IMG/VR virus record: IMGVR_UViG_2695420685_000011
Length of the DNA: 41,961 nucleotides
Direction: 5' to 3' (one strand)
Source: a virus
Lineage: Duplodnaviria; Heunggongvirae; Uroviricota; Caudoviricetes
The first letter of the stretch is position 1; every line of letters begins with the position of its first letter. Shown piece after piece: positions 9,964 to 40,896 of this stretch. Below the pieces are notes generated by a model that saw only the letters and a list, made by a program, of their open reading frames with translations, was not told the origin of the DNA and searched no databases. The translations under genes were made by a program, and so were the position numbers.

Positions 9964-12279
9964 TCAGATTTTGCAGGCTCCGTCGCACTCATCTTCTGGC
10001 TCGACGGCTACAGCTTGCGTAAGTGGATTCTTCGGTTCGTCGTCATCACGCTTTCCTGCCCCATCTCTGGTGTTGTGGTAGTAAAGCGTTTTAACTCCCA
10101 TCTTGTAGGCGAGAAGCAAATCTGACAGTAGCGTCATCATTGGGACTTTATCGCCTTCAAAGCGAGAAGGGTCATAGTTGGTATTGGCTGAAATAGCCTG
10201 GTCAAAGAACTTCTGGATGATCGCCACCTTTGTCAGATAGCCGCGGTTGTCCGGCATATTCCACAGGTATTCATACTGCTCCTTCAGTTTTTCAAACTCA
10301 GGCACGACCATCTTAACGATGCCGTCCTTAGAAGATTTCACCGACACCGGTCCACGAGGCGGTTCGATGCCGTTGGTGGAATTAGTGATCTGGCTGGAAG
10401 TCTCGCATGGCATTTGTGCCGTCAGTGTGGAGTTGCGAAGGCCGTATTTTGCAATACGCTCACGCAGTTCTTCCCACGGCATCTTTAACTCAAAGTTGGT
10501 TTCGCCGCTTTCGTCTAATGAAGAACGGTAATGGTCGATCGGCAACTGACCAATTGCGTATTTGGTCTGCTCAAACCAGTCACACTCACCTTTTGCTTCG
10601 GCAAGTCGGCAGCTGGCGTCAAGAAGGTAATACTGGACAGCTTCGAACGTTTCATGCACCAGTTTATTGCCAGCGGTATCAGAATAACGAACGCCATTCT
10701 TTGCCAGGTAATAAGCAAAGTTGGTTACACCGATTCCCAGGCTACGACGAGCTTTGGCTGGCACTTCGGCTGCCTCCATCGGATAGTCTTGATAATCCAG
10801 TAACGAATCCAGTGCAGCAACGGCATAGAATGCCACCTCTTTAAGAGACTCCAGTGAACGAATGGCTCCGAGGTTAAAAGCGGATAAAGTGCACAGCGCG
10901 ATCTCACCGTTCGGGTCGTCGGCAAATGTCAGTGGACGAGTAGGTAAAGTGATCTCCATACACAGGTTTGACTGGCGGACAGGTGCAAGAGCAGGAATGA
11001 AAGCGCCATGCTCATTAATATGATCGACGTTCGCAATATAAATTCGGCCCGTGGACGCTCGTTCCTGCATCAGAGATGAGAACAGCTCAATGGCAGGTAC
11101 TGACTTCTTGCGAATTGAATCATCGGCTTCGTATTTATGGTACAGCTTTTCAAACAGATCCTGGTCTGTGAAGAAGGCTTCGTACATATCAGGCACATCA
11201 TGCGGGCTGAACAGAGTGATGTTCTCGCTTCTGACGAGTCGACGGTACATCAGACGGTTACTCATGACGCCGTAATCAAGATGGCGAACGCGGTTTTCAT
11301 CGATACCACGGTTATTTTTCACCACCAGCAGACTTTCAACTTCAAGATGCCAAATCGGGTAAAACGCTGTTGCTGCGCCACCACGGACACCACCTTGCGA
11401 GCAAGATTTAACAGCAGTCTGGAAATGCTTCAGGAATGGAATAACTCCGGTATGGGTGGCTTCACCATTGCGGATCTCGCTGCCAAGCGCACGGATACGG
11501 CCAAAACCAATACCAATTCCAGCACGACGTGAAACGTAGTCGATAATTGCGGCTGAAGCTGCACTAATACCTTTCAGACTATCGCCAGACTCAATCAGCA
11601 CACAACTGGAGAACTGACGGGTTGGAGTACGGACGCCGGCCATGATTGGTGTGGGCAGAGACAGTTTGAACGTACTTGTAATGTCATAGAAACCTTTGAC
11701 CATCTCCATACGTGTTTTGCCCGCGCAGTCGTCTTCCCAATTCTGGAACAGACACATGCCAACCAGCATATAGATATGTTGCGGACCTTCGTGAATCTCA
11801 CCAGTAACACGGTTTTGTACGAGATATTTGCTTTGCAGCTGCACCGTAGCCGCATAGCCAAAAAGATCGTCACGTTTAGGCTTAATGTAATTGCCGAGTT
11901 CTTCGATCTCTTCAAACGAATAATGTGTCAGCAAATCCTTGTCATAAACGCCCTTGTTAACGTTCTTGACAATGTGTTGGTAGAAGTTCGGATAGTCGTA
12001 ACGACCGAAGGCATCTTTGCGGATTTTAAAAATGTTCAGGCGGGCAGCCACCTGTGAGTAATTTGGTGCTTCCGGTGAGATCAAATCAGCGGCAGATTTA
12101 ACCAAAGCCTCATGCAACTGGCTGGTGGTCATCCCATCAAAAATGCTGGCCGCAGCTCCCATTGCTACAGCGGATGCGCTTACGCCACGAATGCCTTCTA
12201 CGCCATACATTACGACGCGGTTGTATTTTTCTTCGGATAACGGCTCTGTTTGGCCGTTACGTTTTACGATGCTTATCAT
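9964..12279 (-). CDS. nrdA: ribonucleotide reductase large subunit (class Ia NrdA-like)
   Basis: 771 aa with ATP-cone N-terminus, catalytic-cysteine context and C-terminal CDGACKI tail typical of NrdA. Confidence 0.95.
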   Translation of the reverse strand: MISIVKRNGQTEPLSEEKYNRVVMYGVEGIRGVSASAVAMGAAASIFDGMTTSQLHEALVKSAADLISPEAPNYSQVAARLNIFKIRKDAFGRYDYPNFYQHIVKNVNKGVYDKDLLTHYSFEEIEELGNYIKPKRDDLFGYAATVQLQSKYLVQNRVTGEIHEGPQHIYMLVGMCLFQNWEDDCAGKTRMEMVKGFYDITSTFKLSLPTPIMAGVRTPTRQFSSCVLIESGDSLKGISAASAAIIDYVSRRAGIGIGFGRIRALGSEIRNGEATHTGVIPFLKHFQTAVKSCSQGGVRGGAATAFYPIWHLEVESLLVVKNNRGIDENRVRHLDYGVMSNRLMYRRLVRSENITLFSPHDVPDMYEAFFTDQDLFEKLYHKYEADDSIRKKSVPAIELFSSLMQERASTGRIYIANVDHINEHGAFIPALAPVRQSNLCMEITLPTRPLTFADDPNGEIALCTLSAFNLGAIRSLESLKEVAFYAVAALDSLLDYQDYPMEAAEVPAKARRSLGIGVTNFAYYLAKNGVRYSDTAGNKLVHETFEAVQYYLLDASCRLAEAKGECDWFEQTKYAIGQLPIDHYRSSLDESGETNFELKMPWEELRERIAKYGLRNSTLTAQMPCETSSQITNSTNGIEPPRGPVSVKSSKDGIVKMVVPEFEKLKEQYEYLWNMPDNRGYLTKVAIIQKFFDQAISANTNYDPSRFEGDKVPMMTLLSDLLLAYKMGVKTLYYHNTRDGAGKRDDDEPKNPLTQAVAVEPEDECDGACKI

Positions 12280-21401: not shown

Positions 21402-22232
21402 TTATTTCACTGTAATGAAAGGAGTGTTAGCCCCTTGAGTCATGTACTGCGGTAACTGGCCATTCCATTTATTGATGGCTTCCAGCTCCATAACGTTCGG
21501 GTTTTGACGCAGAGCTTCACCGCGCAGACGAATGGCGTCGGCTTCTGCTTGCGCACGAGCACGGATAGCATCAGCTTCACCATTAGCCTGTTCACGTAGC
21601 ATATTCGCCTCAGCTTTACGCTGTTCAACTTCCTGCTGACGTTGCAGAGTACGCTGGTTAGCCGTTACTTTGGCGTTGATAGATTCAATGACGGTTTTTG
21701 GGTAATCAGGCTTTCCAACCCATGACAGGCTCAGTACCTCAATACCAACCGGAGACATCTCTTTCTGAATATCTTTCAGTGCGTTGTCCAGCAATTGCGC
21801 CTTACCACCGTCGATAAATGAGTCAGTGGTCATACGGCTGGCCAAACGGTTTAGAGAGTCGGCAATTTTCTGACGCAGATCTGATTCGGTGATATCGTCT
21901 ACGCCTTTGCGATAGGTCTGGAACACCGTCGTTACCTTGTCACGATTAACCAGATACGCAACGCCAATTTTGTGACCAATAGCAGTACCGTCACTCATCT
22001 GGAATGTGAACGGCTCGTCGTAGGTCTTCATTTGTTTGAAGGTCGGGAATACGTAAAGTTCGGTGTTAAGACCTGTCCATTGGCGACCAACGCCAACCAC
22101 TTCACCGATCCCTTTGTCTTCACCTAATTTGTTTACTTTGATGCCAACGTATCCAGGCTCCACGCGATCACAGCCAGTAAGACCCATTGTGCAAATAGCC
22201 GCCAGAGCAACTGCAAGTAAACCTTTCTTCAT
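21402..22232 (-). CDS. SPFH/band-7 (prohibitin/flotillin-like) lipoprotein
   Basis: Lipobox LTGC after a signal sequence, then a band-7-like core and a C-terminal A/E/R-rich coiled coil. Confidence 0.75.
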   Translation of the reverse strand: MKKGLLAVALAAICTMGLTGCDRVEPGYVGIKVNKLGEDKGIGEVVGVGRQWTGLNTELYVFPTFKQMKTYDEPFTFQMSDGTAIGHKIGVAYLVNRDKVTTVFQTYRKGVDDITESDLRQKIADSLNRLASRMTTDSFIDGGKAQLLDNALKDIQKEMSPVGIEVLSLSWVGKPDYPKTVIESINAKVTANQRTLQRQQEVEQRKAEANMLREQANGEADAIRARAQAEADAIRLRGEALRQNPNVMELEAINKWNGQLPQYMTQGANTPFITVK

Positions 22233-22235
22233 TAC

Positions 22236-22436
22236 TTATTTCCCCTTTGCTTTGATTAATGAGTTGATAAACTTACGACCAGCAATAAGACCGATTACAG
22301 GAGCACCAAAACCAACGATAACTCCAAACATGACGGCTAAATCACTCTTGGTAGAAATCAGCGACGGAACCAGTAAACCGTAGATGAGAGCCACTGAAAG
22401 GCCTGTGGCTACTGCCAATAGATAGATTTTGATCAT
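22236..22436 (-). CDS. small two-TM membrane protein (possible NfeD-like partner of the SPFH protein)
   Basis: 66 aa with two hydrophobic helices; stop 3 nt before the SPFH gene start; conserved leader upstream. Confidence 0.55.
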   Translation of the reverse strand: MIKIYLLAVATGLSVALIYGLLVPSLISTKSDLAVMFGVIVGFGAPVIGLIAGRKFINSLIKAKGK

Positions 22437-22465
22437 GTGTTTTCCTATGTGGTTGTTATGCGAAA

Positions 22466-22494
22466 ATAATAAGTAAGTACTTATATATTTTCAA
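22466..22494 (-). promoter_or_regulatory. sigma70-like promoter (TTGAAA-N17-TATTAT on minus strand)
   Basis: -35 at 22489-22494 and -10 at 22466-22471 read on the minus strand, about 30 nt upstream of the 22436 start; palindromic motif lies in the spacer. Confidence 0.45.
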
Positions 22495-22498
22495 GAGA

Positions 22499-22523
22499 TA
22501 AAAAAGGCGTCCTGTGGACGCCT
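22499..22523 (-). terminator. rho-independent terminator after the recombinase gene
   Basis: Stem AGGCGTCC/GGACGCCT with T-run on the minus strand. Confidence 0.65.
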
Positions 22524-22528
22524 TGTGT

Positions 22529-23602
22529 TTACTCTTCTACTGACTCGGTGGGGTTGTCTTTTGCTCTTCGGTCGTCGATTGCCTGCAAAGCCGCAATGAT
22601 TTCAGCCAGTGGCTTCTCCCGATACATCTCGACGATCTGCGATTTGGTGTATTTCTTGTCACCAATTTCAACTCGCCCGCTGGCGTTCTTTGGCAGGTAT
22701 CCTTCTTCCAGCATGTACTCGACGAGCGATTCGATAACGTCGAGGCCACGAGTAGGATCGAAGTAGAATTTCCAGGTGCATTTGCCATACGGTGGTGCAA
22801 CTTTGTTTTTGATGCATTCTGCGCCTACGTCTTGGCCGATCTTCTCTTTACCATCCTTCATCACCGATGCACCAAGACGGATACGTACAGAAGCGTAGAA
22901 CTTCGGTGAATCTCCACCTGGCGACGTAGTAGGGTCGCCAAACATTACACCGATTTTTGTGCGAACCTGATTCAAGAAGATGATGCAGGCGTTGTATTTG
23001 CGTGCCCACAAAGCCAGAGTAGGGAAGTTCGCACTTGTCGCACGAGCCAGTGCCGTATTGTCGTTCATGTTTAGCTGATCTTTGTCTTTGGCAGTGCCTT
23101 CAGCCATCTTTTCGAACTTCTCGGCTTTGGAGTTCGGAACCATAGACGCAAGTGAGTCAGCCACGATACAGATAGGTGCTGATTCAGGGATAAGCTCTTC
23201 ATCACGTACCAATTTAAGTATTGTGCCGATCAACTCTACAGAGTCTTCGAAGGTGTCAGGCTGCTTGTATACCCACTGACCGTCATCCTCATCTGCGTTC
23301 AGGCCATTGGCTACAGCCAGGCCAACGTCAAAACTGTTTTCATGATCGAGGAATACCGCCAGACCATCTTGTTTTTGAGCGGAGATCATCGCTGCTGTTG
23401 CAAGGAACGTTTTCCCTGCACTTGGAGGACCGAATACTTCGACGATACGACCACATGGGAAGCCGCCATCGTAACGACCAGAAATAGCTTTGTTTAACGG
23501 TGGAAAGCCTGTATCAATCCAATGAGTTACTTTCTGAATTTCGTCGTTGCTACCGATTTTCTTTTTCAGAGCAAGTGCCAGTGCGGATTTTCCTTTTGCC
23601 AT
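22529..23602 (-). CDS. RecA-like recombinase (RecA/UvsX/Sak4 superfamily)
   Basis: Walker A GPPSAGKT, RecA-like core and Walker B-like IVADSLASM; AAAGGAGC SD. Confidence 0.85.
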   Translation of the reverse strand: MAKGKSALALALKKKIGSNDEIQKVTHWIDTGFPPLNKAISGRYDGGFPCGRIVEVFGPPSAGKTFLATAAMISAQKQDGLAVFLDHENSFDVGLAVANGLNADEDDGQWVYKQPDTFEDSVELIGTILKLVRDEELIPESAPICIVADSLASMVPNSKAEKFEKMAEGTAKDKDQLNMNDNTALARATSANFPTLALWARKYNACIIFLNQVRTKIGVMFGDPTTSPGGDSPKFYASVRIRLGASVMKDGKEKIGQDVGAECIKNKVAPPYGKCTWKFYFDPTRGLDVIESLVEYMLEEGYLPKNASGRVEIGDKKYTKSQIVEMYREKPLAEIIAALQAIDDRRAKDNPTESVEE

Positions 23603-23604
23603 GA

Positions 23605-23871
23605 TCAGGCTCCTTTTGTTTCGTTGATTCGTTTTAAAGCGGCGGATTCATCGAATACAATCGCATCGTGGTTAAGGAGTCTGGATACACGAGCGAGGAT
23701 TTTTACGACCTGCTCGCTGACTAATCCAAACTCGCGATCTGTCGCTTTCATTCCGGCAGCGCCTAGAATTGACGGCAGTGCGATGACAGCGTACTCACCG
23801 TGATAAAAGACAATCTCTTTTGCCAGTTGGGCAGGGGTGGTTGTAGCGCCATTGATAATCGATTTAAGCAT
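23605..23871 (-). CDS. hypothetical protein
   Basis: ORF whose ATG overlaps the FEN stop (TAATG); no motifs. Confidence 0.5.
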   Translation of the reverse strand: MLKSIINGATTTPAQLAKEIVFYHGEYAVIALPSILGAAGMKATDREFGLVSEQVVKILARVSRLLNHDAIVFDESAALKRINETKGA

Positions 23872-24815
23872 TAGCAATACCTTTCGAATGGAAGAACAAA
23901 CACTTCAAGGTCTTCAAGGAACGAACGGAAATTCAGCTCGTAGCACAGTTGCTCGAATGCTTTCACGTCACGATTGCCTTTGATTGTTTCGATTTCGGTA
24001 GGCGGAAACTTCGTCTCAATCAGGTTCATTAGCGTGATGTTTCTCTTGAACGCTTCGAGCATTCGACAGCCTGTTTTCTCGTTGAAGGCATTCTTCGCTA
24101 GTTTGTTGAAGGCGGTCTTATGACGCCCTTTATTAACCACGATTGAGCCGTCGTTGATGCCGCGTACCATCGTTGCGACACTTCCCCATTCATGCAGCAG
24201 CTCTTTCGCACCGCCAGCACCAATGCCACCAACACCGCTAATGTTGTCCGAGTTATCGCCTTGTAATGCTTTTGCTTCCAAAAATGCGCGAGGCGTGGCG
24301 AATCCTGTCAGCTCCGCAAATTGCTCAAAATTAACCTGCTTGTTTTTGGCGTCTTCACGCAGGCTTACCCAGCTTACGTTTTCGCGAACTAACTGAAGCC
24401 AGTCGCTATCGCCTGTTAACAGATAGATGTGTTCAACGGTTGGCTGCGGTGCCATGCGGGATACCAGCAGCCCGGCCAGATCATCCGCTTCTGCATCTTT
24501 TGCAATGATTTGGTTAATACCAAGCGCGGTCATCATTTTGAGGATGTATGGCTTCTGGATAGCAAAGCCTTCCTTCATCTTTTTCATATCAGGATCGTCG
24601 TCGCGATTTGCTTTGTAGTCCGGGTAAAAGTCGCGACGCTTGTCACTAAATCCATCCCAAAGAATCATAGGTCGGGCATGGAGGATGGAGGCATAACGAC
24701 GGACGTTCTTAACAAAGCCGAAAGCAGCCTGTACTTCCATTTCGCCGTTGTGCAATTTGTCAGATTGTTGGTGGTAATAACCCAGGCTATTGCCATCTAC
24801 GAAGAGATAATTCAC
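23871..24815 (-). CDS. 5'-3' flap endonuclease/exonuclease (FEN, Pol I N-terminal-domain type)
   Basis: LFVDGNSL, DYKANRDDDPD and GDSD..QL motifs plus helix-hairpin-helix GIGGIG. Start set to the GTG at 24815 with GGAAGGA SD because a terminator hairpin lies at 24836-24859 inside the longer track ORF. Confidence 0.85.
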   Translation of the reverse strand: MNYLFVDGNSLGYYHQQSDKLHNGEMEVQAAFGFVKNVRRYASILHARPMILWDGFSDKRRDFYPDYKANRDDDPDMKKMKEGFAIQKPYILKMMTALGINQIIAKDAEADDLAGLLVSRMAPQPTVEHIYLLTGDSDWLQLVRENVSWVSLREDAKNKQVNFEQFAELTGFATPRAFLEAKALQGDNSDNISGVGGIGAGGAKELLHEWGSVATMVRGINDGSIVVNKGRHKTAFNKLAKNAFNEKTGCRMLEAFKRNITLMNLIETKFPPTEIETIKGNRDVKAFEQLCYELNFRSFLEDLEVFVLPFERYC

Positions 24816-24830
24816 CGGTACATTCCTTCC

Positions 24831-24860
24831 AAAAAGTAAGGCGTCCGTAGACGCCTTACT
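24831..24860 (-). terminator. rho-independent terminator after the SSB gene
   Basis: Stem GTAAGGCGTC/GACGCCTTAC with T-run on the minus strand. Confidence 0.6.
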
Positions 24861-24875
24861 GGTCACGTAATGGGA

Positions 24876-25904
24876 TTACAGAGAGTCCAGCTCTCTCAGT
24901 AGGTCATCCAGACCTTCATCTTCCGTCGCAGATGCGGTTGCTACAGATGTCGCTGCGACTGCTTCAGACTCTTTGACTGATACGGCAACGGCAGCGGAAC
25001 TTGCCTCTGGTTTAAATTCAGTTTCAACGGCACGGAGGATTTCTTCATCAACCAGACTGGTTGGTTCAGAAGCCGGTGTGTGCGCGGTTGCTACAGCCGT
25101 CGCTCCTTCTGTATGACCAGTGACAGAGCCAAATCCAGGTAGTGCCGCAGCCGATGTTTTCGCGGTTGAGGAAATTGCTGGTGCAGATGCTGCGGCAGTT
25201 GGTGCAGCGATGCCAATCAGACGACCCATAGTGCGAACTGTCGACAGAAGACGAGTTTCATCAGCCTGATTTGCGTATGCGATCAGATCATGCTGGGTGT
25301 TCCAGAATTTATCTTCGATATCGCCTTTGTAGACTTTACGCTTAGGCGAGACGTCATATTTGGTATCGCGACCAGAGCCAGTACGTTTAATCAGGAATGC
25401 GTAGCCTTCCTCTTTGCTCAGTGGATTGCCGATATCATCAGCGATGTCTTCGGTGATTGCTTTGCAGATATCATCGAATACAGTAGACGGCAGCTCGATT
25501 AACTGGCATTTCTCAGCATCTGCGAAATCCTCACGAGCAGAAAGAATGCCGTTGACCAGGTAGCGAGGAGTGGCACGCATTTGACCGATGCGTTCTTCCA
25601 TTGCTTTGTTACCCTTGTGACTAGCGCGACCTTCCATCACCATTTCGCATAGCTGACAAGCGCGACCGTGAGTATGTTGCTCACAAATATAAGCGTTGGT
25701 TGCTTCTTTACCTTCCTCGTTCTGATACTTAACGTAGTGCATACCGAAAGTCTGGAAGAACTTACCGTTTGGGTCGTCTTTATTCGGGAAGATGCGGATA
25801 TAGTTGACGCCGTCTTTTAAACGAGTCAGATCAACGTTGTTGCCACGTTTGGCGGCAATGTCTTCACGAGTTTTGTTAAGCAAATCAAGTAATGTCTTAG
25901 ACAT
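24876..25904 (-). CDS. single-stranded DNA-binding protein, T4 gp32-like
   Basis: N-terminal basic region, His/Cys zinc-binding cluster (HTHGRACQLC), Ala/Ser/Thr-rich linker and acidic C-terminal tail DDLLRELDSL. Confidence 0.75.
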   Translation of the reverse strand: MSKTLLDLLNKTREDIAAKRGNNVDLTRLKDGVNYIRIFPNKDDPNGKFFQTFGMHYVKYQNEEGKEATNAYICEQHTHGRACQLCEMVMEGRASHKGNKAMEERIGQMRATPRYLVNGILSAREDFADAEKCQLIELPSTVFDDICKAITEDIADDIGNPLSKEEGYAFLIKRTGSGRDTKYDVSPKRKVYKGDIEDKFWNTQHDLIAYANQADETRLLSTVRTMGRLIGIAAPTAAASAPAISSTAKTSAAALPGFGSVTGHTEGATAVATAHTPASEPTSLVDEEILRAVETEFKPEASSAAVAVSVKESEAVAATSVATASATEDEGLDDLLRELDSL

Positions 25905-26021
25905 GTGTTTCTCCTTGTTGTGATTTGGCCGATGGCGCTATGCGCGTTGGGCTTTCGTTCATTCGTGGCTCTTTCGAGCTGTTAAATGATAGATCAGTAC
26001 TTACTTATTATCTATCAAAAA

Positions 26022-26453
26022 TCAACGGGGAGTAATAAAGCGTTCAGAGCCTAATCGCTCTAATTCAACGATAGCCATCTTCGACGCCTGAACGATCATG
26101 TCTCGGCGATGCGAAAAGGCGGCGACAGCATGTTTGTATATGTCTGCGATGTGCCGTGCTTCATCCAACTTCTGCCGTTTAGACAGATACTGTGGGTTTG
26201 TTTTAACCTTAGCGTCTAGTACAGATTCGTTAAACTTAATGCCGTTCATACTCAAGTTTTTACGCTCTGTGTCGTATAGCTTTGCTTCAACAGCTTCAAG
26301 GTTAAGTTTTGCCTCTGCGACACTTCTTTCTGCATGGGCGAGCTTTGAACCATACTCCATCAACAGGCGAGGTTGTTTACGCCAGACGTCTTCCAGATTG
26401 TCTCTGTCAAACTCGAGATCAGACATTATTTTCTCGTAAATATCGGTGTTCAT
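26022..26453 (-). CDS. hypothetical coiled-coil protein (possibly UvsY-like recombination mediator; speculative)
   Basis: 143-aa helical protein next to the SSB and recombinase genes; size and context only. Confidence 0.4.
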   Translation of the reverse strand: MNTDIYEKIMSDLEFDRDNLEDVWRKQPRLLMEYGSKLAHAERSVAEAKLNLEAVEAKLYDTERKNLSMNGIKFNESVLDAKVKTNPQYLSKRQKLDEARHIADIYKHAVAAFSHRRDMIVQASKMAIVELERLGSERFITPR

Positions 26454-26596
26454 ATTGATATGCTCAAACTTACTTTCGTGTATCTGATTATATCAAACAA
26501 ATAGAGCTTTACTGTCATGATTGGCGGTAGACAGTATCGGCGCTAAGGTGCAGAATCAGGAGGCACACCGAGCAAAGCAAATTGAGAATAAAACCA

Positions 26597-27580
26597 ATGG
26601 ATAAGGCTAACAAACAAGTCAAAGCAACAAAGTCAGTGCCGACTAAAAAAACAGCCCTCCCCCCAAAAGCTAAGTCTGTAAAGCCAGCGGCAGAAAAGAA
26701 TAAAACTGAAGGTATGACATATCCGAAAACCAGTGCGGATGGACACGCTGGAGAGTACTTGTTTGCCTATTGGATTTCTCGTTATTTCAGATGGCCTTGT
26801 CGATTGCTAGATATTGATATGGGATTGGATGCTCAGGTTGAAATATATGAAAATAATCTTTCGACAGGTTTTTTTATCGGCGTTCAGATAAAAACCACCT
26901 CACGCAAAATGAAGAGAAGGTTAAGCGTACAAATACCTTATAAAAATATAACCTATTGGGGAAGTTGTGATTTTCCTGTGGTAATTGTTTTGATATGCCT
27001 ACACGATGATAATGAATTAGACGAACCTGCTATTTATTGGAAGCATTTAGATAAAAAAACAATTTCTAAAATAAAGGATAAAGCATTAAGAAGTGACTCT
27101 GGATGTGCTCCTGTAACTTTCAATAAGGATGATTATCTGTCTGAATGGGCAGACAAACAAAAGTGGGTCGACATGTGGCTTACAGAAGAAGATAAAGAGA
27201 TAATTGAGCTTGCAAAGCGAGTAAACAAGACGTTGCTAGAGATAGGTGTTCCTCTTGATAAATTCGGAGACGAGTATGACCGCAGCACCTACCTGTGTAG
27301 CCCTGAGCGGGTAGTACCAGACTTGAACTCTATGATGAATGAATATGAAAAAATAAATAACCATATACGTGTAAAGCGTCGATTAGTAGAATTCGATCCT
27401 GTAGTGTCGATTTGTTCACAAAATTATGAAAAGTATCTACCTAAAATCCTTGAATATTTTGAAGATGTGGTCGCACGTAGTGTCGGTTCATACTCGATTG
27501 CAGAACATTTCGAACCATACAGTGATCGTAATCATATTCTGAATCGAATAATTATAGAGAAAGCCCCTAATTCAAGATAG
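26597..27580 (+). CDS. nuclease-fold protein with lysine-rich N-terminal tail (DUF4365-like; unverified)
   Basis: K/P/A-rich tail, then GHAGEYLFAYW..DIDMGLD..VEIY..GVQIKT resembling restriction-endonuclease-like D..E.K signatures; AT-rich; opposite strand to neighbours; terminator downstream. Confidence 0.6.
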   Translation: MDKANKQVKATKSVPTKKTALPPKAKSVKPAAEKNKTEGMTYPKTSADGHAGEYLFAYWISRYFRWPCRLLDIDMGLDAQVEIYENNLSTGFFIGVQIKTTSRKMKRRLSVQIPYKNITYWGSCDFPVVIVLICLHDDNELDEPAIYWKHLDKKTISKIKDKALRSDSGCAPVTFNKDDYLSEWADKQKWVDMWLTEEDKEIIELAKRVNKTLLEIGVPLDKFGDEYDRSTYLCSPERVVPDLNSMMNEYEKINNHIRVKRRLVEFDPVVSICSQNYEKYLPKILEYFEDVVARSVGSYSIAEHFEPYSDRNHILNRIIIEKAPNSR

Positions 27581-27586
27581 TCAAAT

Positions 27587-27615
27587 GAAAAGCTCGTCAA
27601 TTGACGAGCTTTTCA
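27587..27615. terminator. bidirectional terminator between the plus-strand insert gene and dnaE
   Basis: Perfect 10-bp stem AGCTCGTCAA/TTGACGAGCT flanked by A and T runs. Confidence 0.65.
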
Positions 27616-27753
27616 TTAGGCGACTTTCTTACCAAAAATATTGGATAGCGTGACTCTGGTCTGGCGCTTCAGCCTGTACTGTCTCACATCGCCAATCTTG
27701 TTTACTTCCATAAACTCTTTGCTCTTTGGCCACCTTCATGGTGTTCGCTTTGT

Positions 27754-30700
27754 TCATTTGCTAATAGTCTCCGCTACCTCTGCAAGAATTGCTTCCAGCT
27801 TTTCGCCTTCCTCTGGGCGAAAGTACAAAATATTCGGGTTAAATCCGTAGAAAACAGTCACATCCAGCTCCGGCAGATACTCTTTGCGTCCAACCAGGTC
27901 GGATGGTTTGCTCTTGTTGTTGAAGAGCGATGTCGCCCGGCTGCCACACGTCAGCACATAGGTTGGACGCACCAGATTGATCTCTTCACGCATAAAGTCG
28001 GTGAACTGGCCGATCTCGTCTTTGGTGTAGTCTTTTTCTTTGTCTTTAACCTTCTTGCAAACGCCTGTGACATAGAGATCGCCCATGCGTAAATCTCCAG
28101 CCGTCAATAGCTTGGCCTTAAAATCGTCGTATCCGTTCTCCATAAAGTAACCGGTTCGAGCATCATTGCCGTTCGCATTGTCCAGAATGATCATGATTTT
28201 CGGCTTAATACCAATGCTGGGGCGGATTAGTTCATCACCTAAGCCCATTTCAGCCGCCATCCGTGTCATGAGCACGTTAATCTCAGCCGAACGTTTGGGG
28301 TTCATCTCAAACGGACGTGAGGCTTTAACTGCGTCTATGACAAGGTTTCCCATCAATTCAGCCTGGTCGCGTAGGCGCTCTGGATCAGTTGCTGGCAGAC
28401 TACCTGGCTCGATGGATGCAAACGCCCCTACTTTTTGCAGCGATTCGCGCACTCGACTATTACAGGCACGTTTCTCGACAGCTTCTTCGAATTGCGCCAG
28501 TGACTCGAATTTGCCGCCAACTTTTTCTCGCGCTCTCATGATGGCTTGGCAGCCATTCTCAGAACACCCCTTCACAGCAGAGAAGGGCGCATACAGCACC
28601 TGGCTGCCATCTTCAAGCGTGCGGATCTCGATTCGGTTGGATGACACGTTAACGTCTGGTGGCAATACGCGAATACCATAGGTCAGCGCATCTTTAACCA
28701 GCCCCTGGTGTTTATCTTCGCCAAGAATAGTGAGAGCAGCAGCGAAAAACTCTGCGGGATAATGAGTTTTCAACCACATAGATTGATAACTGATCAAGGA
28801 GTAAGCAACAGAGTGTGATTTGTTGAACTGGTAGGCACCATTTTTTTCGAATGCGGTCCAGATCTCCTTCGCTTTCATCTCTGATAGCCCTGGGTGTGAC
28901 GCTGTCACGCGTACTGCGTTTATAGGTAGTTTTGCGCCGTGTTCAAGCGCCTCTTCGACAGTTTTCAGTGTTCCGTCTTCGCATTTAAAATGTTCCGCAC
29001 GGTGAATGCGCTGTGTAGTGCCATCTTCCAGCTCAACGTCTATCCAGCCAGCTTGAGCCTGAACGATGAACTTCTCACCCATGCTCTTCATTTTCTCCAT
29101 GTCTTTTTTGCCGATCGCTTTACGAACGCCGTCAGCTTCAGCCATTGTGAAGCCCGCAAGCAATCGAGTCGCGTTCATCGTCTGTTCCTGATAAAGAATC
29201 ACGCCATTTGTTTCTGCGGTAAGTTCATCAAGAACGGGGTGTAATGATTCCGGCGTCATAAAGCCTTTGGCGACAGAAACATAATCATCCAACATGCCTG
29301 ACTGAATTGGCCCCGGCCGGAAGAGCGCAGTCGTAGCAACGACCGTTTTAAAGCTCATTGGCTCAATTCCACCACCTAAATCTTTAAGCAGCTTGCGCAT
29401 TGGGCCTGATTCAAGCTGGAAAACACCTTGAGTGTACCCAGCAGCAAAACCATCCAGCACCTTGCGATCTTCAAGAGAAATGGCATCAAGATTGATATCC
29501 TCACCTGTGTTCTCTTTAATGTAGCGTTTTGCACTATCGAGCAAATCGAGAGTCGCCAGGCCAAGTACGTCCAGCTTAATTAGGCCCATAGCCTCGCAGT
29601 AACGCTTGTCAAATGCGATACAACGCGCGTCACCACGTCGTTCAACCGGTGTTCGTTCTGTCAGAGGAACACCTGCTACGATCATCCCTGCCGCATGTCT
29701 ACCATAGCCACGCATAAGGCTTTGTAACTTGCAGGCTGCATTGAATGCATCAGGATATTTTGTCGCGTATTTGTCGAGGCTTACCAGTTGTTCGCGCAGC
29801 TCTTCCAATGGAAGGCTATCATCCTCGACGTTCTTCAGTTCTTTTGATACCGCCATATCTGCGGACTCCACACCATAAATACGAGCGGTGTCACGTAGTG
29901 CAGAGGCCGCGCCCAGGTAGGTGAAGTTCGGAATGCCTGCAACGTAATCTTCGCCGTAGCGTTCATTCAGATACTCGATCACCTCATGGCGACGTGCCTG
30001 GCTGAAGTCCAAGTCCGCATCTGGCAAGTCGAGACGCTCAGGGTTGATGAAACGTTCAAACAGAAGACCGTGACGGATAGGGTCGACGTTGGTTATGCCT
30101 ATGCACCATGCCACCAAAGAGCCAGCGGAGGAACCACGACCAGGCCCGACAGGAATGCCAGTTTCACGGCTGTGATTCATCAGATCGCGTACCATCAGGA
30201 AGTAACCACAAAATCCCAGGCGAGTAAGCGTGTCCATTTCGTACTTAAGTCGCTCAACATAAACCCTGTTCTCAGAAGCCGGTGGTGTGTAGCCAAACTC
30301 TTTTGTGGTAAGACGTTTACGCAGCCCAGCAACGGCCAGTTTCATCAGCGTTGCAGGCTCGTCGTCTGCCATCTTTGGCAGTGCTGGTGGCAATTCATGC
30401 CAGCGCCATGTGCAGGCATCGATAATGGTATCCTGCGTTGTTGAGGCCATTGCAGCTGTTACCGGCACATCCATGCGAACGGAGAAGGCTTTCAGCGCCT
30501 CAAGGAGATGGCGGCGACCATTGACGGCGTTATCTCGCTGGTGGGGGATACGCAGACGATGCGGCTGGTCGATTTTGATGTTGTTCGTAACCATGTGCGC
30601 AATGTCTTTAATGTCTGCATCGTCGATCGATTCGTAATAAGCGGGATAGAACGCTACTGGCTCTATTTTCAGTGCGCTGGCGACTTTCATCGCCCGGACG

Positions 30701-31272
30701 TTAATCTGGTCGTAGAATGGGGTAGGGTGCGGATAAACCACACTATAGAAGTTGTCTTTTCCACCCGCTGTAATCAGTGAGCTTATGATTTTTGCAAAAT
30801 CGTTGCGTTGGAACACGCTACCGATGTCGGCAGTGAGCAGGATGATGTTGCCTTTGGCATATGTAGAAACCAACTGTTCGAGCGAGAGACGCGGTACAAA
30901 GTAGAACTGTTCTCGTGTGTTGGCCGCCGTCATTAGTTCGCAGATGTCTCGATATCCCTGCTCATTTTTAATTAGAGCGGTAAAGGAGTAGTTCCGCCCA
31001 CGCTCTAATGATTCCATACATCCCATAGACTCTTTAGCAAGTTTAGCCCGGTGCTCGTATGTGGGATCATCAACAATGTTTAGTTTCACACCACAAATAA
31101 CCGCCATGTCGTCACCAGCGGCACGTTGTAGTGGAATAACACTCGCAATATTCATGCTATCTGCCGAAATTACAGCGGTGTAGCCAGCTTCTCTGGCAAT
31201 CTTCACCGCGTTTTCTGCTTTTAGAGCCGACTCCCCAAGAGAGAAGTCAGTTCGAACCATCAGAGCCTTCAT
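27754..31272 (-). CDS. dnaE: DNA polymerase III alpha subunit (DnaE-like, with N-terminal PHP domain)
   Basis: 1172 aa; PHP-domain N-terminus and collinear DnaE-like core; AAAGGTAAAAACAC leader. Confidence 0.92.
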   Translation of the reverse strand: MKALMVRTDFSLGESALKAENAVKIAREAGYTAVISADSMNIASVIPLQRAAGDDMAVICGVKLNIVDDPTYEHRAKLAKESMGCMESLERGRNYSFTALIKNEQGYRDICELMTAANTREQFYFVPRLSLEQLVSTYAKGNIILLTADIGSVFQRNDFAKIISSLITAGGKDNFYSVVYPHPTPFYDQINVRAMKVASALKIEPVAFYPAYYESIDDADIKDIAHMVTNNIKIDQPHRLRIPHQRDNAVNGRRHLLEALKAFSVRMDVPVTAAMASTTQDTIIDACTWRWHELPPALPKMADDEPATLMKLAVAGLRKRLTTKEFGYTPPASENRVYVERLKYEMDTLTRLGFCGYFLMVRDLMNHSRETGIPVGPGRGSSAGSLVAWCIGITNVDPIRHGLLFERFINPERLDLPDADLDFSQARRHEVIEYLNERYGEDYVAGIPNFTYLGAASALRDTARIYGVESADMAVSKELKNVEDDSLPLEELREQLVSLDKYATKYPDAFNAACKLQSLMRGYGRHAAGMIVAGVPLTERTPVERRGDARCIAFDKRYCEAMGLIKLDVLGLATLDLLDSAKRYIKENTGEDINLDAISLEDRKVLDGFAAGYTQGVFQLESGPMRKLLKDLGGGIEPMSFKTVVATTALFRPGPIQSGMLDDYVSVAKGFMTPESLHPVLDELTAETNGVILYQEQTMNATRLLAGFTMAEADGVRKAIGKKDMEKMKSMGEKFIVQAQAGWIDVELEDGTTQRIHRAEHFKCEDGTLKTVEEALEHGAKLPINAVRVTASHPGLSEMKAKEIWTAFEKNGAYQFNKSHSVAYSLISYQSMWLKTHYPAEFFAAALTILGEDKHQGLVKDALTYGIRVLPPDVNVSSNRIEIRTLEDGSQVLYAPFSAVKGCSENGCQAIMRAREKVGGKFESLAQFEEAVEKRACNSRVRESLQKVGAFASIEPGSLPATDPERLRDQAELMGNLVIDAVKASRPFEMNPKRSAEINVLMTRMAAEMGLGDELIRPSIGIKPKIMIILDNANGNDARTGYFMENGYDDFKAKLLTAGDLRMGDLYVTGVCKKVKDKEKDYTKDEIGQFTDFMREEINLVRPTYVLTCGSRATSLFNNKSKPSDLVGRKEYLPELDVTVFYGFNPNILYFRPEEGEKLEAILAEVAETISK

Positions 31273-37569: not shown

Positions 37570-38832
37570 ATGCCTTTTTTAATTTTCATTATTATACTAC
37601 TGCTCACCGTGATTTTTTGGGATTGGGTTGTTTTAAATGGTCAAATTGTTGGAACATTGGCTACAGCATTTGCTTTTATAGCAACAGCATGGAATGCCTA
37701 CGAAGCGAGAAAAAGTGCAAAAGCAGCTTTTTCAGCCCTTCAATTAACAACAGAATCATTGTTCGAAATGCGAAAGAGTGCATTTAAACAATGGTTTGAT
37801 TCCTTATTAAATCAACATGATGAGCTATGTCTTCTTGCAAAACAAATTATCGATAAACGCAAAGTTAATTTAAACAGCGATGAGTTACATAGACTATATT
37901 ACCCATTGGTAAAACAGCATGAGGTAATACAGTATGTGAAGCATATTATTAATATTTTTGAGTATGTGGATAGTTCATTTTATATTGATGGGGAATGTCT
38001 AAAGGAAAAAAGAGCGTATGTGTCACAATTAATTTTCAAAATCCCACCTCAGATGAAGTTGATCATTGCTATCTTTGGATTAAAAATCGATTATTGTGAA
38101 CATATTAATTCGGGAAAACTGTGTTGTTTATTGAATAAATATGATTTTTTCAATGATGAAATATTTTTTGATGATGCTTATTCAGATATGCCTTATCTGG
38201 ATGCATTCATAAACCTTAGATTCAACAAAATATTCAAATCTCGAATGATAAATTATTTTGATAATATCATTAAAAGTTATTATGTTCCATCGGACGTTAA
38301 AAGGGACTGGATGTTTCGAAACCCAAAGCTCGTGCCGTCGGTTCTTATGAATTATAAAACTCCTTGTTCTCCTATAATTAATGATTACTTTGAGAAGTTG
38401 CCTTTACATGTAAGAAACTACTTTGAGGAACTACTTAAAACCGCGAATGATAGAGTTACTCATTTTGACGTTTACATCCCACGCCTTATTGGTTGTTCAA
38501 TCGTGCAACATTACGAAGATGTGCCTTCCGAAAAAAACAGGTTAAATGACAGGAATGATGTAATAGCTATGGCTGAAGATTACATCGAGAAAAGAAAATA
38601 TAATCAACTGGATTACATACTTGAAGATATATACTTCAAGAGTGACGAAGATATAATCCCTGGCCACCATTTGATTGTGGCATTTGATGACTATGAATTT
38701 AAATTATCACTCATTAAGATAAATGAGAATAAAGATAGCGATAATCTTTTAAATCGAATTTATACTGAATCCAGTAGCATGGTTAAAGAATATAAGCGCG
38801 AAATATTAAAACTGGGCGACTATGTAAAGTAA
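37570..38832 (+). CDS. membrane-anchored hypothetical protein
   Basis: 420 aa; two N-terminal hydrophobic helices; very AT-rich and N/K/Y/F/I-rich; plus strand; terminator directly downstream. Confidence 0.6.
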   Translation: MPFLIFIIILLLTVIFWDWVVLNGQIVGTLATAFAFIATAWNAYEARKSAKAAFSALQLTTESLFEMRKSAFKQWFDSLLNQHDELCLLAKQIIDKRKVNLNSDELHRLYYPLVKQHEVIQYVKHIINIFEYVDSSFYIDGECLKEKRAYVSQLIFKIPPQMKLIIAIFGLKIDYCEHINSGKLCCLLNKYDFFNDEIFFDDAYSDMPYLDAFINLRFNKIFKSRMINYFDNIIKSYYVPSDVKRDWMFRNPKLVPSVLMNYKTPCSPIINDYFEKLPLHVRNYFEELLKTANDRVTHFDVYIPRLIGCSIVQHYEDVPSEKNRLNDRNDVIAMAEDYIEKRKYNQLDYILEDIYFKSDEDIIPGHHLIVAFDDYEFKLSLIKINENKDSDNLLNRIYTESSSMVKEYKREILKLGDYVK

Positions 38833-38844
38833 ATTGCACTGTTC

Positions 38845-38878
38845 AACAAAAAAGGGGCCGAAGCCCCTTTGAATTTTG
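38845..38878 (+). terminator. rho-independent terminator after the 420-aa gene
   Basis: Stem GGGGCC/GGCCCC region (AAAGGGGCCGAAGCCCCTTT) followed by a T-run. Confidence 0.7.
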
Positions 38879-38944
38879 CGCTGAAAAAAGTGTTGCTAGG
38901 ATGTTAGCAAGCTATGGTTAAGAACGTCTGCCGTAATTATCTAT

Positions 38945-39022
38945 CACAGCGTTGAGCGGTCTGGTTTATGTTAGCGGAGTCTTAATCGAGTTGATTAAAA
39001 GGCCAAACCGCTCAACGCTGTG
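38945..39022 (-). other. long hairpin (16-bp perfect stem) at the 3' end of the tRNA cluster
   Basis: CACAGCGTTGAGCGGT at 38945-38960 pairs with ACCGCTCAACGCTGTG at 39007-39022; possible processing or termination structure. Confidence 0.5.
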
Positions 39023-39024
39023 TC

Positions 39025-39111
39025 TGGCGGAGAGTAATGGAATCGAACCATCATCGTTTGCACAATGGGACGGTTTTCAAGACCGCTTGAGCACCATGCT
39101 CCCTACTCTCC
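39025..39111 (-). tRNA. tRNA-Ser (anticodon UGA), long variable arm
   Basis: Manual fold: acceptor GGAGAGT/ACTCTCC, anticodon loop CTTGAAA, T-loop GGTTCGATTCC, CCA end. Confidence 0.8.
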
Positions 39112-39431
39112 AGCTATTGTGATGGTCGGTGCTGAACTCCGACACAGGGTTGTAGCAAGCCCCGCAAAGCGCGCACTACTGTAGTTGCGGCACATCAGCC
39201 TGTGCATTCATCACAATGGTAAGATCACTACCTTTCGACCAGTCATTGTGCACATGAACGACGATTAACCGTAATGATATTATCGTTGTGTTGTGAAGCC
39301 AGATGCTTATCTTCTGGTTGCTTCAAAGAGCTGCACTTCCTCACAACGGTAAGAGCACTGGTCTGACTCTATCGATTTACGGCCTTGTGGGTCAGTATCG
39401 CCGATTCGCCCAATGCTCTTACCTGTTGTGT

Positions 39432-39507
39432 TGGTGCCGGTTAACGGACTTGAACCGCTGGCCATTCGCTTACAAAACGACTGCTCTACCAACTGAGCTA
39501 AACCGGC
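39432..39507 (-). tRNA. tRNA-Thr (anticodon UGU, tentative)
   Basis: Manual fold: acceptor GCCGGTT/AACCGGC, D-arm GCTCAGTTGGTAGAGC, anticodon loop TTTGTAA, T-loop TTCAAGT, CCA end; one mismatch in the anticodon stem. Confidence 0.65.
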
Positions 39508-39511
39508 AATT

Positions 39512-39598
39512 TGGTGGGGAGTGATGGAGTCGAACCACCCGAGTCGCCATGACAGTAGATTTACAGTCTACACCGCTACCTCTACGGACTAACTCCCC
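39512..39598 (-). tRNA. tRNA-Tyr (anticodon GUA), long variable arm
   Basis: Manual fold: acceptor GGGGAGT/ACTCCCC, anticodon stem-loop GTAGA-CTGTAAA-TCTAC, T-loop GGTTCGACTCC, CCA end. Confidence 0.8.
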
Positions 39599-39603
39599 TA
39601 AAT

Positions 39604-39678
39604 TGGCGATGGTGGGTGGATTCGAACCACCGACCAGTTGGTTAACAGCCAACTGCTCTACCGCTGAGCTACACCATC
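39604..39678 (-). tRNA. tRNA-Asn (anticodon GUU)
   Basis: Manual fold: acceptor GATGGTG/CACCATC, anticodon stem-loop GTTGG-CTGTTAA-CCAAC, T-loop GGTTCGAATCC, CCA end. Confidence 0.85.
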
Positions 39679-40456
39679 AATTCAGCACTGCCAGTATTTA
39701 TTACTCAACAGTGCCAATCGCGACGGTTTAGTTTCTGCCAGGAAACGCACCGCTACTTGCACTTTTCGTTAGTGCCAGACGCTTTCGACTTCGCTCAATA
39801 GTAGAAGGCAAAATCTTTAAGTAGATGATGTTTCTGAGGACAGCACCTACTTTGTAATTTATACAATGTGATGTATGGAATCATTTGTTGTGAAAACAGG
39901 CACCAATGGCAACAGTGGTTAAACCTACACAACAATCCCGTCTTCACAACGTTGAGGCCACTACTCCGATTGAATGTTTGCCCAACATGTTACATATCAA
40001 CGCTCGCCGGTATCTCTGTGAATAGAACCTTAGAATTGATAAAAATGTAATGGCCTCAACGTTGTGTGCTGGCTAACCATACCAGCCGGGCTACGTCGCC
40101 GCTTTTTAACCCAGTATAAACGACATAATTGAACAAAATGACGTAACAGGATGGGCGGTCAGTGGCTAAGAATCCGGGAGTCATATGGAGTTGAAAATAT
40201 ACCAACCGCCCATTCTGTTACTTCATCGGAGGGAACATGAATGTTCCCTCCTGCGTTCTGCAATCACACTCGCTCAGTGTGTCCCATTTCGGTAACGAGG
40301 CTGGAAACTGACCTCGCTGGTGTTTGGCTTATTAGGCTACTGCCAGATAGACTTCTTCGTTTGCACTTGTATTTAAGTTCAAACAGTCGCGTCTCAACGA
40401 AAACAAAGTCATCTTATACACAAAAGATAAGTAAGTAAATACTTATCATTGTATTT

Positions 40457-40747
40457 TTATTCGGTTGTGACTTTTTTGATCAAGGCCACTCTACGACTAG
40501 GTGTTCTTGTGATGGTGGCAGTGAATCGTTTCGCCTGGATAGTAATGGTTTCGTTCTCCTTAAGTTGCCCGTAGCGAGTTTCCACCAGGGTGCCAAGACG
40601 CCACAGACCATCATCGATACGTTTATGACTAGCAAATTTAATCAGCAACAGTTTTACGACTAACTGACCTACGTAAAAGGCGAATGCGACTCCGGCCGCT
40701 AAGAAATAGGTGGCCAACCACCATTCCCAAGAAGTTAGCTTGCTCAT
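40457..40747 (-). CDS. membrane-anchored hypothetical protein
   Basis: N-terminal TM helix WWLATYFLAAGVAFAFYVG; AAAGGTGAAAAA leader; start overlaps the upstream small ORF stop. Confidence 0.6.
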   Translation of the reverse strand: MSKLTSWEWWLATYFLAAGVAFAFYVGQLVVKLLLIKFASHKRIDDGLWRLGTLVETRYGQLKENETITIQAKRFTATITRTPSRRVALIKKVTTE

Positions 40748-40896
40748 TTTTTCACCTTTGTTTCATGAACTACCCGATACACGCGCTTTCCTATGCACAG
40801 TGTTTTGGTTTTAAGTTCCTGCTTAATCAAATCACGACAGATGCCGAAGCCGATAAGGAAGCCACCCATAAAAGCTAATGAGATGTATGGAATCAT
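40744..40896 (-). CDS. small membrane protein (50 aa; not in ORF track)
   Basis: My own translation: MIPYISLAFMGGFLIGFGICRDL...; AGGAG SD 8 nt upstream; start overlaps the upstream stop (TAATG) and stop overlaps the downstream start (ATGA). Confidence 0.4.
   Translation of the reverse strand: MIPYISLAFMGGFLIGFGICRDLIKQELKTKTLCIGKRVYRVVHETKVKK

Follow-up and report, generated by a model that had tools for sequence, protein, structure and literature searches.

The window that we analysed, 41,961 nucleotides in all, derives from an SSU5/pHCM2-like phage-plasmid of E. coli, with Escherichia phages CMS-2020a and Cyrano as its top matches. ARAGORN places four tRNA genes on its minus strand: tRNA-Asn (39604-39678), tRNA-Tyr (39512-39598), tRNA-Thr(UGU) (39432-39507) and tRNA-Ser(UGA) (39025-39111). 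Around them the DNA is non-coding for about 1.6 kb, and an intrinsic terminator at 38851-38870 on the same strand closes the minus-strand RNA operon. Since no sigma-70-like promoter was found in 38700-40800, the tRNAs are probably transcribed by read-through from upstream minus-strand genes. The initial annotation gave the correct coordinates for the tRNA-Ser and tRNA-Thr genes and missed their strand; because all four genes read on the minus strand, the relevant RNA from the DNA between them is the reverse complement of the strand that it described. We consider the likeliest reading of this Ser-Thr spacer (39112-39431) to be a non-coding part of one long minus-strand transcript that also carries tRNA-Asn, Tyr, Thr and Ser. 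The early remark that the spacer has no credible open reading frame held up: the longest frame in the spacer spans at most 73 aa, the frames overlap tRNA genes, and none is conserved.

Two observations concern the tRNA genes themselves. The tRNA-Ser(UGA) gene at 39025-39111 fails the general Rfam tRNA model, its best match being tRNA-Sec at 44.8 bits (below the 47-bit threshold), and the record of phage D6 remarks that tRNAscan-SE gives no amino acid for the counterpart there. The tRNA-Tyr gene of the window is intact, and P1, D6 and Cyrano lack one.

Read on the tRNA strand, the spacer is built of two tandem modules, in each of which a long hairpin of about 20 bp leads into a multi-helix domain with GUUGUG/CACAAC as its closing stem. 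In the Rfam and Infernal comparison proposed at the outset, only three tRNAs in the whole window pass the Rfam 15 gathering threshold and no family matches the spacer; at E<=10 the spacer yields two snoRNA chance matches only, and none to the tRNA clan. Likewise, ARAGORN calls no tRNA within 39112-39431 at its default, 90% or 80% thresholds, and relaxing it to 70% gives noise on both strands. The fold of the whole spacer goes moderately beyond that of shuffled sequences (z = -2.3, tRNA strand), and the strong evidence for structure in this RNA is comparative, not thermodynamic. The CACAAY hexamer is not enriched across the window (46 occurrences against 54 expected); 12 of the 46 lie inside 39061-40066, and the window RNA has seven within about 1 kb, the tandem CACAACACAAC among them.

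The first hairpin, Unit 1 (39342-39430, minus strand), lies directly 3' of tRNA-Thr, whose 3' CCA abuts its 5' end. Its 5' arm ACACAACAGGUAAGAGCAUUGG and 3' arm CCAGUGCUCUUACCGUUGUG form a stem of about 20 bp with one bulged A, longer than the 16 bp or so first proposed, around an interior of about 48 nt that differs among phages. The existence of this hairpin is well supported by its folding energy of -38 kcal/mol, against -19.9 +/- 3.2 for shuffled sequences (z = -5.6; 0 of 200 shuffles equal it). Across 21 distinct homologues, 95.2% of the cells in 20 pairs are canonical, with up to five pair types per position, compared with 36-60% in slid controls. Variants of the stem such as GAGCA/UGCUC, GGGUA/UACCC, GAGAGCA/UGUUCUC, AGCGCAC/GUGCGCU and GGGAGUUCCCCU/AGGGGAACUUCC are all still paired, and the alignment holds about 36 G.U cells, which makes the pairing specific to the tRNA strand. 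Covariation analysis is impossible for the variable interiors of this unit and of Unit 4 (below), which are either unrelated or more than 90% identical. The copy of the hairpin in P1 (L001 1838-1915, minus strand) encloses a T-arm-like GGGUUCGAAUCCC and is reported by ARAGORN as a weak tRNA-Tyr at the 80% threshold. We also considered a boxA reading of UGCUCUUA in the 3' arm and treat it as a weak lead only: the 8-mer occurs 9 times in the window against 6.8 expected and is buried in the 20-bp helix.

Overlapping the 3' end of Unit 1 is a compact domain (39290-39347, minus strand) that the initial annotation overlooked, together with the strand and the GUUGUG common to hairpin and domain. We define it by a covariance model (R1), by covariation and by RNAalifold as a three-way-junction RNA core. 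A 9-bp helix, P1 (39347-39339 with 39298-39290), closes a junction that runs through AAGUGCA (39338-39332), the hairpin P2 (39331-39320), a dinucleotide AA (39319-39318) and the hairpin P3 (39317-39299), in which CCAG and CUGG flank AAGAUAAGCAU. The consensus of the family has the same order: the 5' strand of the 9-bp P1, AAKUGCA, P2 of 3-4 bp with a loop CNNNGA, AA, P3 as CCAG[AAGAUMAGCNN]CUGG, and the 3' strand of P1. Its P3 loop sequence is AAGAUAAGC and its junction region GAAKUGCAG. The only R1 match of the window covers 39285-39351 of the minus strand (83.7 bits, E = 2e-22); each related locus has one full-scoring copy.

The helices of the core are kept by compensatory change, and the junction and the P3 loop AAGAUMAGC are nearly invariant. 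A MAFFT alignment of 28 distinct sequences, made independently of the model, has 92.5% of cells paired and nine pairs changed on both sides, with a covariation score of 0.370 against 0.139 for shuffled alignments (0 of 500, kinship ignored) and at most 0.087 for slid ones. A larger alignment of 43 distinct sequences, which was fitted to R1 and hence leans toward the model, gives 95.3% of cells paired, double changes in 9 of 16 pairs (91 double-change cells) and a score of 0.394 against 0.142 shuffled (0 of 500, kinship ignored) and at most 0.104 slid. RNAalifold, run unguided, returned the same three helices P1, P2 and P3. The family was seeded by scanning viral contigs for the exact 16-mer CAACCAGAAGATAAGC, which led to about 100 true loci, so part of the invariance reflects sampling; a looser genome scan in which the P3 loop was left free still found AAGAU[A/C]AGC there, with true matches in Enterobacterales only, plus two likely contaminants. 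An Rfam scan of the junction at six other loci (L001, L006, L017, L019, L045, L071) gave no family, and the core sequence was not found in the literature searched. The core therefore belongs to an uncatalogued family of three-way-junction RNAs of enterobacterial phages that is absent from Rfam 15. What we took to be likenesses of the P3 loop to the tRNA-Ile anticodon loop, RNase P RNA and the PP7 operator are matches of 6-9 nt only and were treated as chance. Covariation in related genomes, the check originally suggested for this region, has thus come out in favour of small structured RNAs: Unit 1 and the three-way junction both keep their pairs through compensatory changes in unrelated phages.

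Unit 1 and the core have one strand in common. The hexamer GUUGUG at 39347-39342 forms both the last six bases of Unit 1 and the outer half of P1, and the upstream CACAAC pairs with it in 21 of 21 Unit 1 sequences, whereas the two outermost pairs of P1 fail in 10-11 of the 43 core sequences. The two helices must therefore either abut on the shared strand or compete for it. The GUUGUG strand can pair with CACAAC on either side of it, which is more suggestive of a switch than of an RNA that is simply excised.

The second module begins after a linker, ACAACGAUAAUAUCAUUACGGUUAAUCGUCGUUCAUGUG (39251-39289, minus strand), which opens with the second copy of the tandem CACAACACAAC and contains a weak hairpin. 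The linker is about 78% identical to a stretch of Phapecoctavirus tRNA clusters, and its region (39208-39300) folds no better than shuffled sequence (z = -0.4). Next comes Unit 3 (39212-39250, minus strand; CACAAUG...CAUUGUG), a shortened version of the Unit 1 hairpin with a 3' arm, AGUGAUCUUACCAUUGUG, homologous to that of Unit 1. A related unit had been noted at 39213-39251, and it is indeed part of a real direct repeat, 39207-39229 being 87% identical to 39337-39359. By sequence, Unit 3 is a decayed copy of the Unit 1 hairpin, retaining its 3' half, placed ahead of Unit 4. At the same position P1 has a full-length hairpin, ACAACGUUGAGAACACUGG...CCAGUGUUCUCAACAUUGUG.

Unit 4 (39116-39217, minus strand) is the second closed domain. 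Its closing stem, AUUGUGAUG / CAUCACAAU, encloses a 5' hairpin GCAC-AGGCUGAU-GUGC (39205-39190), a variable middle, and a 3' hairpin GUCGG-AGUUCAGCA-CCGAC (39143-39125) that abuts the closing stem. The 5' end of tRNA-Ser lies 4 nt past it. About 600 P1-like and SSU5-like plasmids contain Unit 4 with at least 90% identity; taken alone, its fold is not significant (z = -1.4). The four interior variants that we found all keep the closing stem, a 5' hairpin GCRC-AGGCUGAU-GYGC, and a 3' hairpin set directly against that stem. Over 18 end pairs, 97.9% of cells are paired and four pairs have changed on both sides, evidence that is modest given the few variants. The helix order of Unit 4 is tRNA-like, and no tRNA model matches it. 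The fourth variant (L074, ~11209-11319) lies in a lambdoid contig that also carries a three-way junction in its N leader, so the Unit 4 family is not confined to tRNA operons. Phapecoctavirus DE16 follows the same grammar after its tRNA-Thr, with a hairpin, then GUUGUGAAG, another interior and UUCACAAC, then a second hairpin.

Other features of the surrounding non-coding region deserve mention. The three best long-range hairpins of the 42-kb window (38945-39022, 39945-40066 and 40138-40226) all fall in the 1.6-kb tRNA region, with arms of 20-22 nt that are at least 91% complementary and loops of 38-82 nt; two of them start CACAGCGTTGAG / CACAACGTTGAG, resembling the full-length Unit 3 stem of P1. 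The roughly 770 nt upstream of tRNA-Asn (39680-40456) are devoid of any credible ORF. Their promoter-distal part of ~390 nt (40054-40446) has 84% identity with SSU5, and the 'C-type natriuretic protein' that one record places there would seem to be one more spurious ORF over RNA. A perfect 11+11 palindrome, GGAGGGAACAT/ATGTTCCCTCC, occupies 40228-40251.

The spacer is a mosaic whose sub-segments match separate groups of phages. Numbered along the transcript, bases 1-146 match 9NA-like siphoviruses (PJ16, Sasha), where the sequence lies in the capsid-neck intergenic region with no tRNA; bases 73-146 match P1, P7, D6 and SJ46; bases 135-224 match Phapecoctavirus tRNA clusters; and bases 203-316 match P1-like and SSU5-like plasmids. 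Positions 39112-39260 (149 bases compared) are identical to plasmid NC_023916.1, and the order of tRNA-Thr followed by a hairpin recurs in P1 and Phapecoctavirus DE16. In the close relative Cyrano the spacer is absent, as is tRNA-Tyr, and tRNA-Ser stands 8 nt from tRNA-Thr. Together with a CRISPRi study of P1 in which trnT, plp and upl score as non-essential (PMC10695390), this makes the three-way-junction module dispensable as well as portable.

The junction is carried by 598 of 5426 complete E. coli genomes (about 11%), in P1-, D6- and SSU5-like phage-plasmids, at 608 plasmid and 16 chromosomal sites, nearly all of them without annotation. It occurs in P1/D6/SSU5-like tRNA operons; in 9NA-like phages it lies in a capsid-neck intergenic region; other copies are in leaders that follow cI-like repressors; and P22-like and lambdoid phages have it between nutL and N (Pfam N_peptide). 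Where the core is found in tRNA operons, 9NA-like phages or leaders that lack N, a hairpin of about 20 bp stands ahead of it, with an interior that is unrelated from one phage to another. In two contigs (L058, L089), a hairpin and a three-way junction head a small cassette with a 123-135-aa ORF, set between portal and terminase genes in the opposite direction.

Many prophage-like contigs have the core after a promoter and a boxA, with 33-39 nt between its last CUGG and the start of a small basic ORF. Pfam assigns this ORF to antiterminator N, and NCBIfam gave nothing for it; named carriers include the Salmonella phages SPN9CC and g341c. These N-leader copies have the three-segment layout CCAAAG / CUUUGG / CCAAAG, as in the modules of the window, and their fixed spacing of 33-39 nt to the N start codon fits a role in cis. 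A long closing helix, CUUUGG.../...CCAAAG, lies between nutL and the N ribosome-binding site in L017, L029, L060 and other contigs, as well as in lambda and 933W. Lambda, 933W and P22 have the same flanks (CCAAAG..CUUUGG and a GU-rich stem ... ACCAAAG and a Shine-Dalgarno sequence) around unrelated interiors, and an R1 scan of lambda and 933W gave no match. The same slot holds P22B, a 96-nt RNA of P22 that ends ...ACCAAAGCCAUUUCA, 16 nt before gene 24, and reaches 642 RPM in infected cells (PMC13397905). The interior of P22B differs from the three-way junction, and its phage is not that of the window. Contig L060, however, has a P22-type gene 24 leader with the junction in place of the P22B interior. 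Taken together, P22B and L060 imply that this slot can yield a stable small RNA and that its content is exchangeable.

How might the spacer RNAs work? The likeliest reading, to which we give about even weight, is that they would be accessory small RNAs cut from the tRNA transcript and acting in trans. RNase P and RNase E would cut at the flanking tRNAs, the part of RNase P following from general tRNA processing; because the 5' end of tRNA-Ser comes 4 nt after Unit 4, RNase P cleavage there would define the 3' end of the spacer RNA. RNase III would cut within the 20-bp helices, freeing the domains as stable, tRNA-sized RNAs. Helices with 20-22 nt arms, the putative processing handles, are clustered within the window in the tRNA region only. 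Once released, the RNAs may use the invariant single-stranded surface of the junction to act in trans on some conserved component of the host, for which a protein is a better candidate than another RNA; the element has no terminator and no obvious Hfq module. By analogy, P22B suggests that a stable RNA can be expressed from such a slot, with the qualification that it has another interior and comes from another phage.

We also put forward, tentatively, a broader possibility. The hairpin of about 20 bp and the GU-rich closing stem could constitute a portable RNA scaffold, equivalent to the RNase III device of the lambda N leader, into which interchangeable cargos are placed as accessory genes. 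The three-way junction would be one such cargo, perhaps regulating a conserved host factor or serving as a decoy for it (an anti-defence or RNA-metabolism target, for example), or else acting as a new aptamer that senses a ligand.

The main alternative, somewhat doubtful in our judgement and still to be taken seriously, is that the element acts in cis as a leader or processing device. The three-way junction would then be an aptamer-like sensor or a co-transcriptional folding device, in which P1 and the upstream hairpin compete for GUUGUG (or CUUUGG); the outcome would determine either how well the downstream sequence is translated, as in the lambda N leader, or how neighbouring tRNAs are processed. 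Both alternative helices are conserved, with CACAAC/GUUGUG of Unit 1 intact in every homologue and the outer P1 pairs failing in about a quarter; the N-leader copies keep all three segments and their constant distance to the N start codon; and the junction usually stands close to the start of a transcription unit or ahead of an ORF. Its conserved junction nucleotides are typical of aptamers. Judged as a riboswitch, the RNA has the conserved multi-helix junction and the alternative pairing, but no ligand or expression platform can be named. Moreover, nothing translatable lies downstream in the window, P1 or D6, where RNA hairpins come next, or tRNA-Ser (4 nt away in L014-type contigs), and in 9NA-like phages the junction is followed by more RNA and then a terminator.

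We regard it as unlikely that the conservation arises at the level of DNA, with the CACAAC...GTTGTG inverted repeats being the ends of recombination cassettes or mobile elements of MITE or attC type. The mosaic spread of the spacer, its presence or absence between near-identical relatives and the exchange of interiors exactly at conserved stems would all be expected of mobile DNA, and, like attC cores, the repeats have AAC / GTT at their ends. However, many of the pairs are G.U and would turn into A.C mismatches if the opposite strand were read, the orientation is always that of the flanking tRNAs or N gene, and the internal helices P2 and P1, to which a model of terminal repeats gives no part, covary as well. 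The sequences also deviate from the attC consensus RYYYAAC/GTTRRRY, and no transposase or integron integrase was seen near the handful of loci that we read through their ORFs and record annotations, a reading that was not a targeted search.

Decay of tRNA genes, the second explanation offered in the initial annotation, would make the units pseudogenes of a once larger array, which we now consider very improbable. The units are tRNA-sized and lie inside a tRNA array, and traces of tRNA ancestry can be pointed to in the helix order of Unit 4 (39116-39217), with an acceptor-like stem, 2 nt, a 4-bp hairpin of 8-nt loop and, right against the 3' strand, a terminal hairpin, and in the GGGUUCGAAUCCC T-arm of the homologous P1 hairpin with its weak tRNA-Tyr call. 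Yet compensatory pairing and near-invariant loops across unrelated phages are the opposite of decay, and the junction core is also found where tRNAs are absent. With neither a spacer call by ARAGORN at 80% or above nor an Rfam tRNA match at E<=10, this reading is largely refuted.

That the plus strand encodes proteins, as the P1 reference record has it by placing Upl and Plp ('putative lipoprotein') over the homologous stretch, an assignment copied in some P1-like records, is scarcely credible, since the Plp-like pieces in the window fall in three frames with both ORFs broken by stops, plp is antisense to tRNA-Thr, nearly all of 619 E. coli records have no PGAP annotation here, and the pattern of conservation is that of RNA helices. 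In P1 itself (L001, 1376-1945), upl and plp run antisense over the conserved RNA modules and tRNA-Thr, and their frames are not kept in the window; on function, the literature searched for the two genes gave only listings of non-essentiality and differential expression. The analysis suggests that these reference annotations are artefacts over RNA genes. It also adds a well-supported structured RNA family, missing from Rfam 15, that reaches about one in nine complete E. coli genomes through P1-like and SSU5-like phage-plasmids.

Several phage RNAs invite comparison with those of the spacer. The parallel drawn at the outset was with T4, and it holds for position: rnaC and rnaD (species 1 and 2) are likewise non-tRNA, tRNA-sized RNAs read from the tRNA strand of a phage tRNA cluster, just as the junction of the window is found on the minus strand between tRNA-Thr and tRNA-Ser. 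It does not extend to homology. R1, run with filters off over T4 69500-74500, gave no match on rnaC or rnaD (the best, 13 bits, was elsewhere in the region), and the absence of sequence or structure similarity refers to the junction model only; in addition, the canonical T-arm of rnaC has no counterpart in the window units. The C4 RNA of P1 and P7 and the CI RNA of P4 are cut from the leader of an early operon and consist of a terminal closing stem with two hairpins, and C4 acts on complementary sites in its own transcript. The C4 model RF01695 (cmscan, E-value mode) found no match in the window or in L001, L006, L017, L019, L045 and L071. A C4-like cis-antisense mechanism was set aside on the finding that complements within +/-1.5 kb of 87 distinct loci are not enriched, with 5 for the P3 loop against 3.6 expected and 3 for the junction against 3.6.

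The put RNA of HK022 likewise belongs to lambdoid early leaders and acts in cis, but it consists of two tandem stem-loops rather than a closed junction; with no R1 match in the immunity region (HK022 22000-31000, best 7.9 bits), we rejected identity with put. AgvB, which traps the host sRNA GcvB through CACAACA, is an enterobacterial prophage anti-sRNA, as is AsxR (PMC4104026). It is 51-60 nt long and lies downstream of PR', with its own start site and a Rho-independent terminator (PMC4104026). In the window RNA, by contrast, most CACAAC is paired to GUUGUG and no terminator adjoins the element, the only one nearby on the minus strand being that at 38851-38870; the N-leader members have no CACAAC at all. 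This difference in architecture led us to discard an anti-sRNA of the AgvB/AsxR type. On these comparisons, made with the junction model for T4 and put, the window RNAs are not homologous to T4 rnaC/rnaD, C4, put or AgvB.

A further comparison is with the lambda N leader, whose slot in P22-like and lambdoid relatives holds the three-way junction between homologous flanks (CUUUGG and a GU-rich strand ... its complement, ACCAAAG and a Shine-Dalgarno sequence). The GU-rich 5' strand of the lambda hairpin is, we presume, the element called boxC in the older literature, and the lambda structure is cleaved by RNase III. The window copy differs in lying in a tRNA operon with no N gene and in having CACAAC/GUUGUG stems instead, and its helices of 20-22 bp are of a length compatible with RNase III cleavage, which is known for lambda only. 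The lambda leader is highly structured and RNase III modulates translation of N, as far as the citing account relates it (Wilson et al., 2002, cited in PMC5725501). Our analysis connects three subjects so far treated apart: the odd stable RNAs of phage tRNA clusters, a puzzle ever since T4; the structured lambda N leader; and P22B. All of them may be interchangeable RNA cargos in one processing scaffold, an idea for which P1 and the P22-like phages offer tractable systems.
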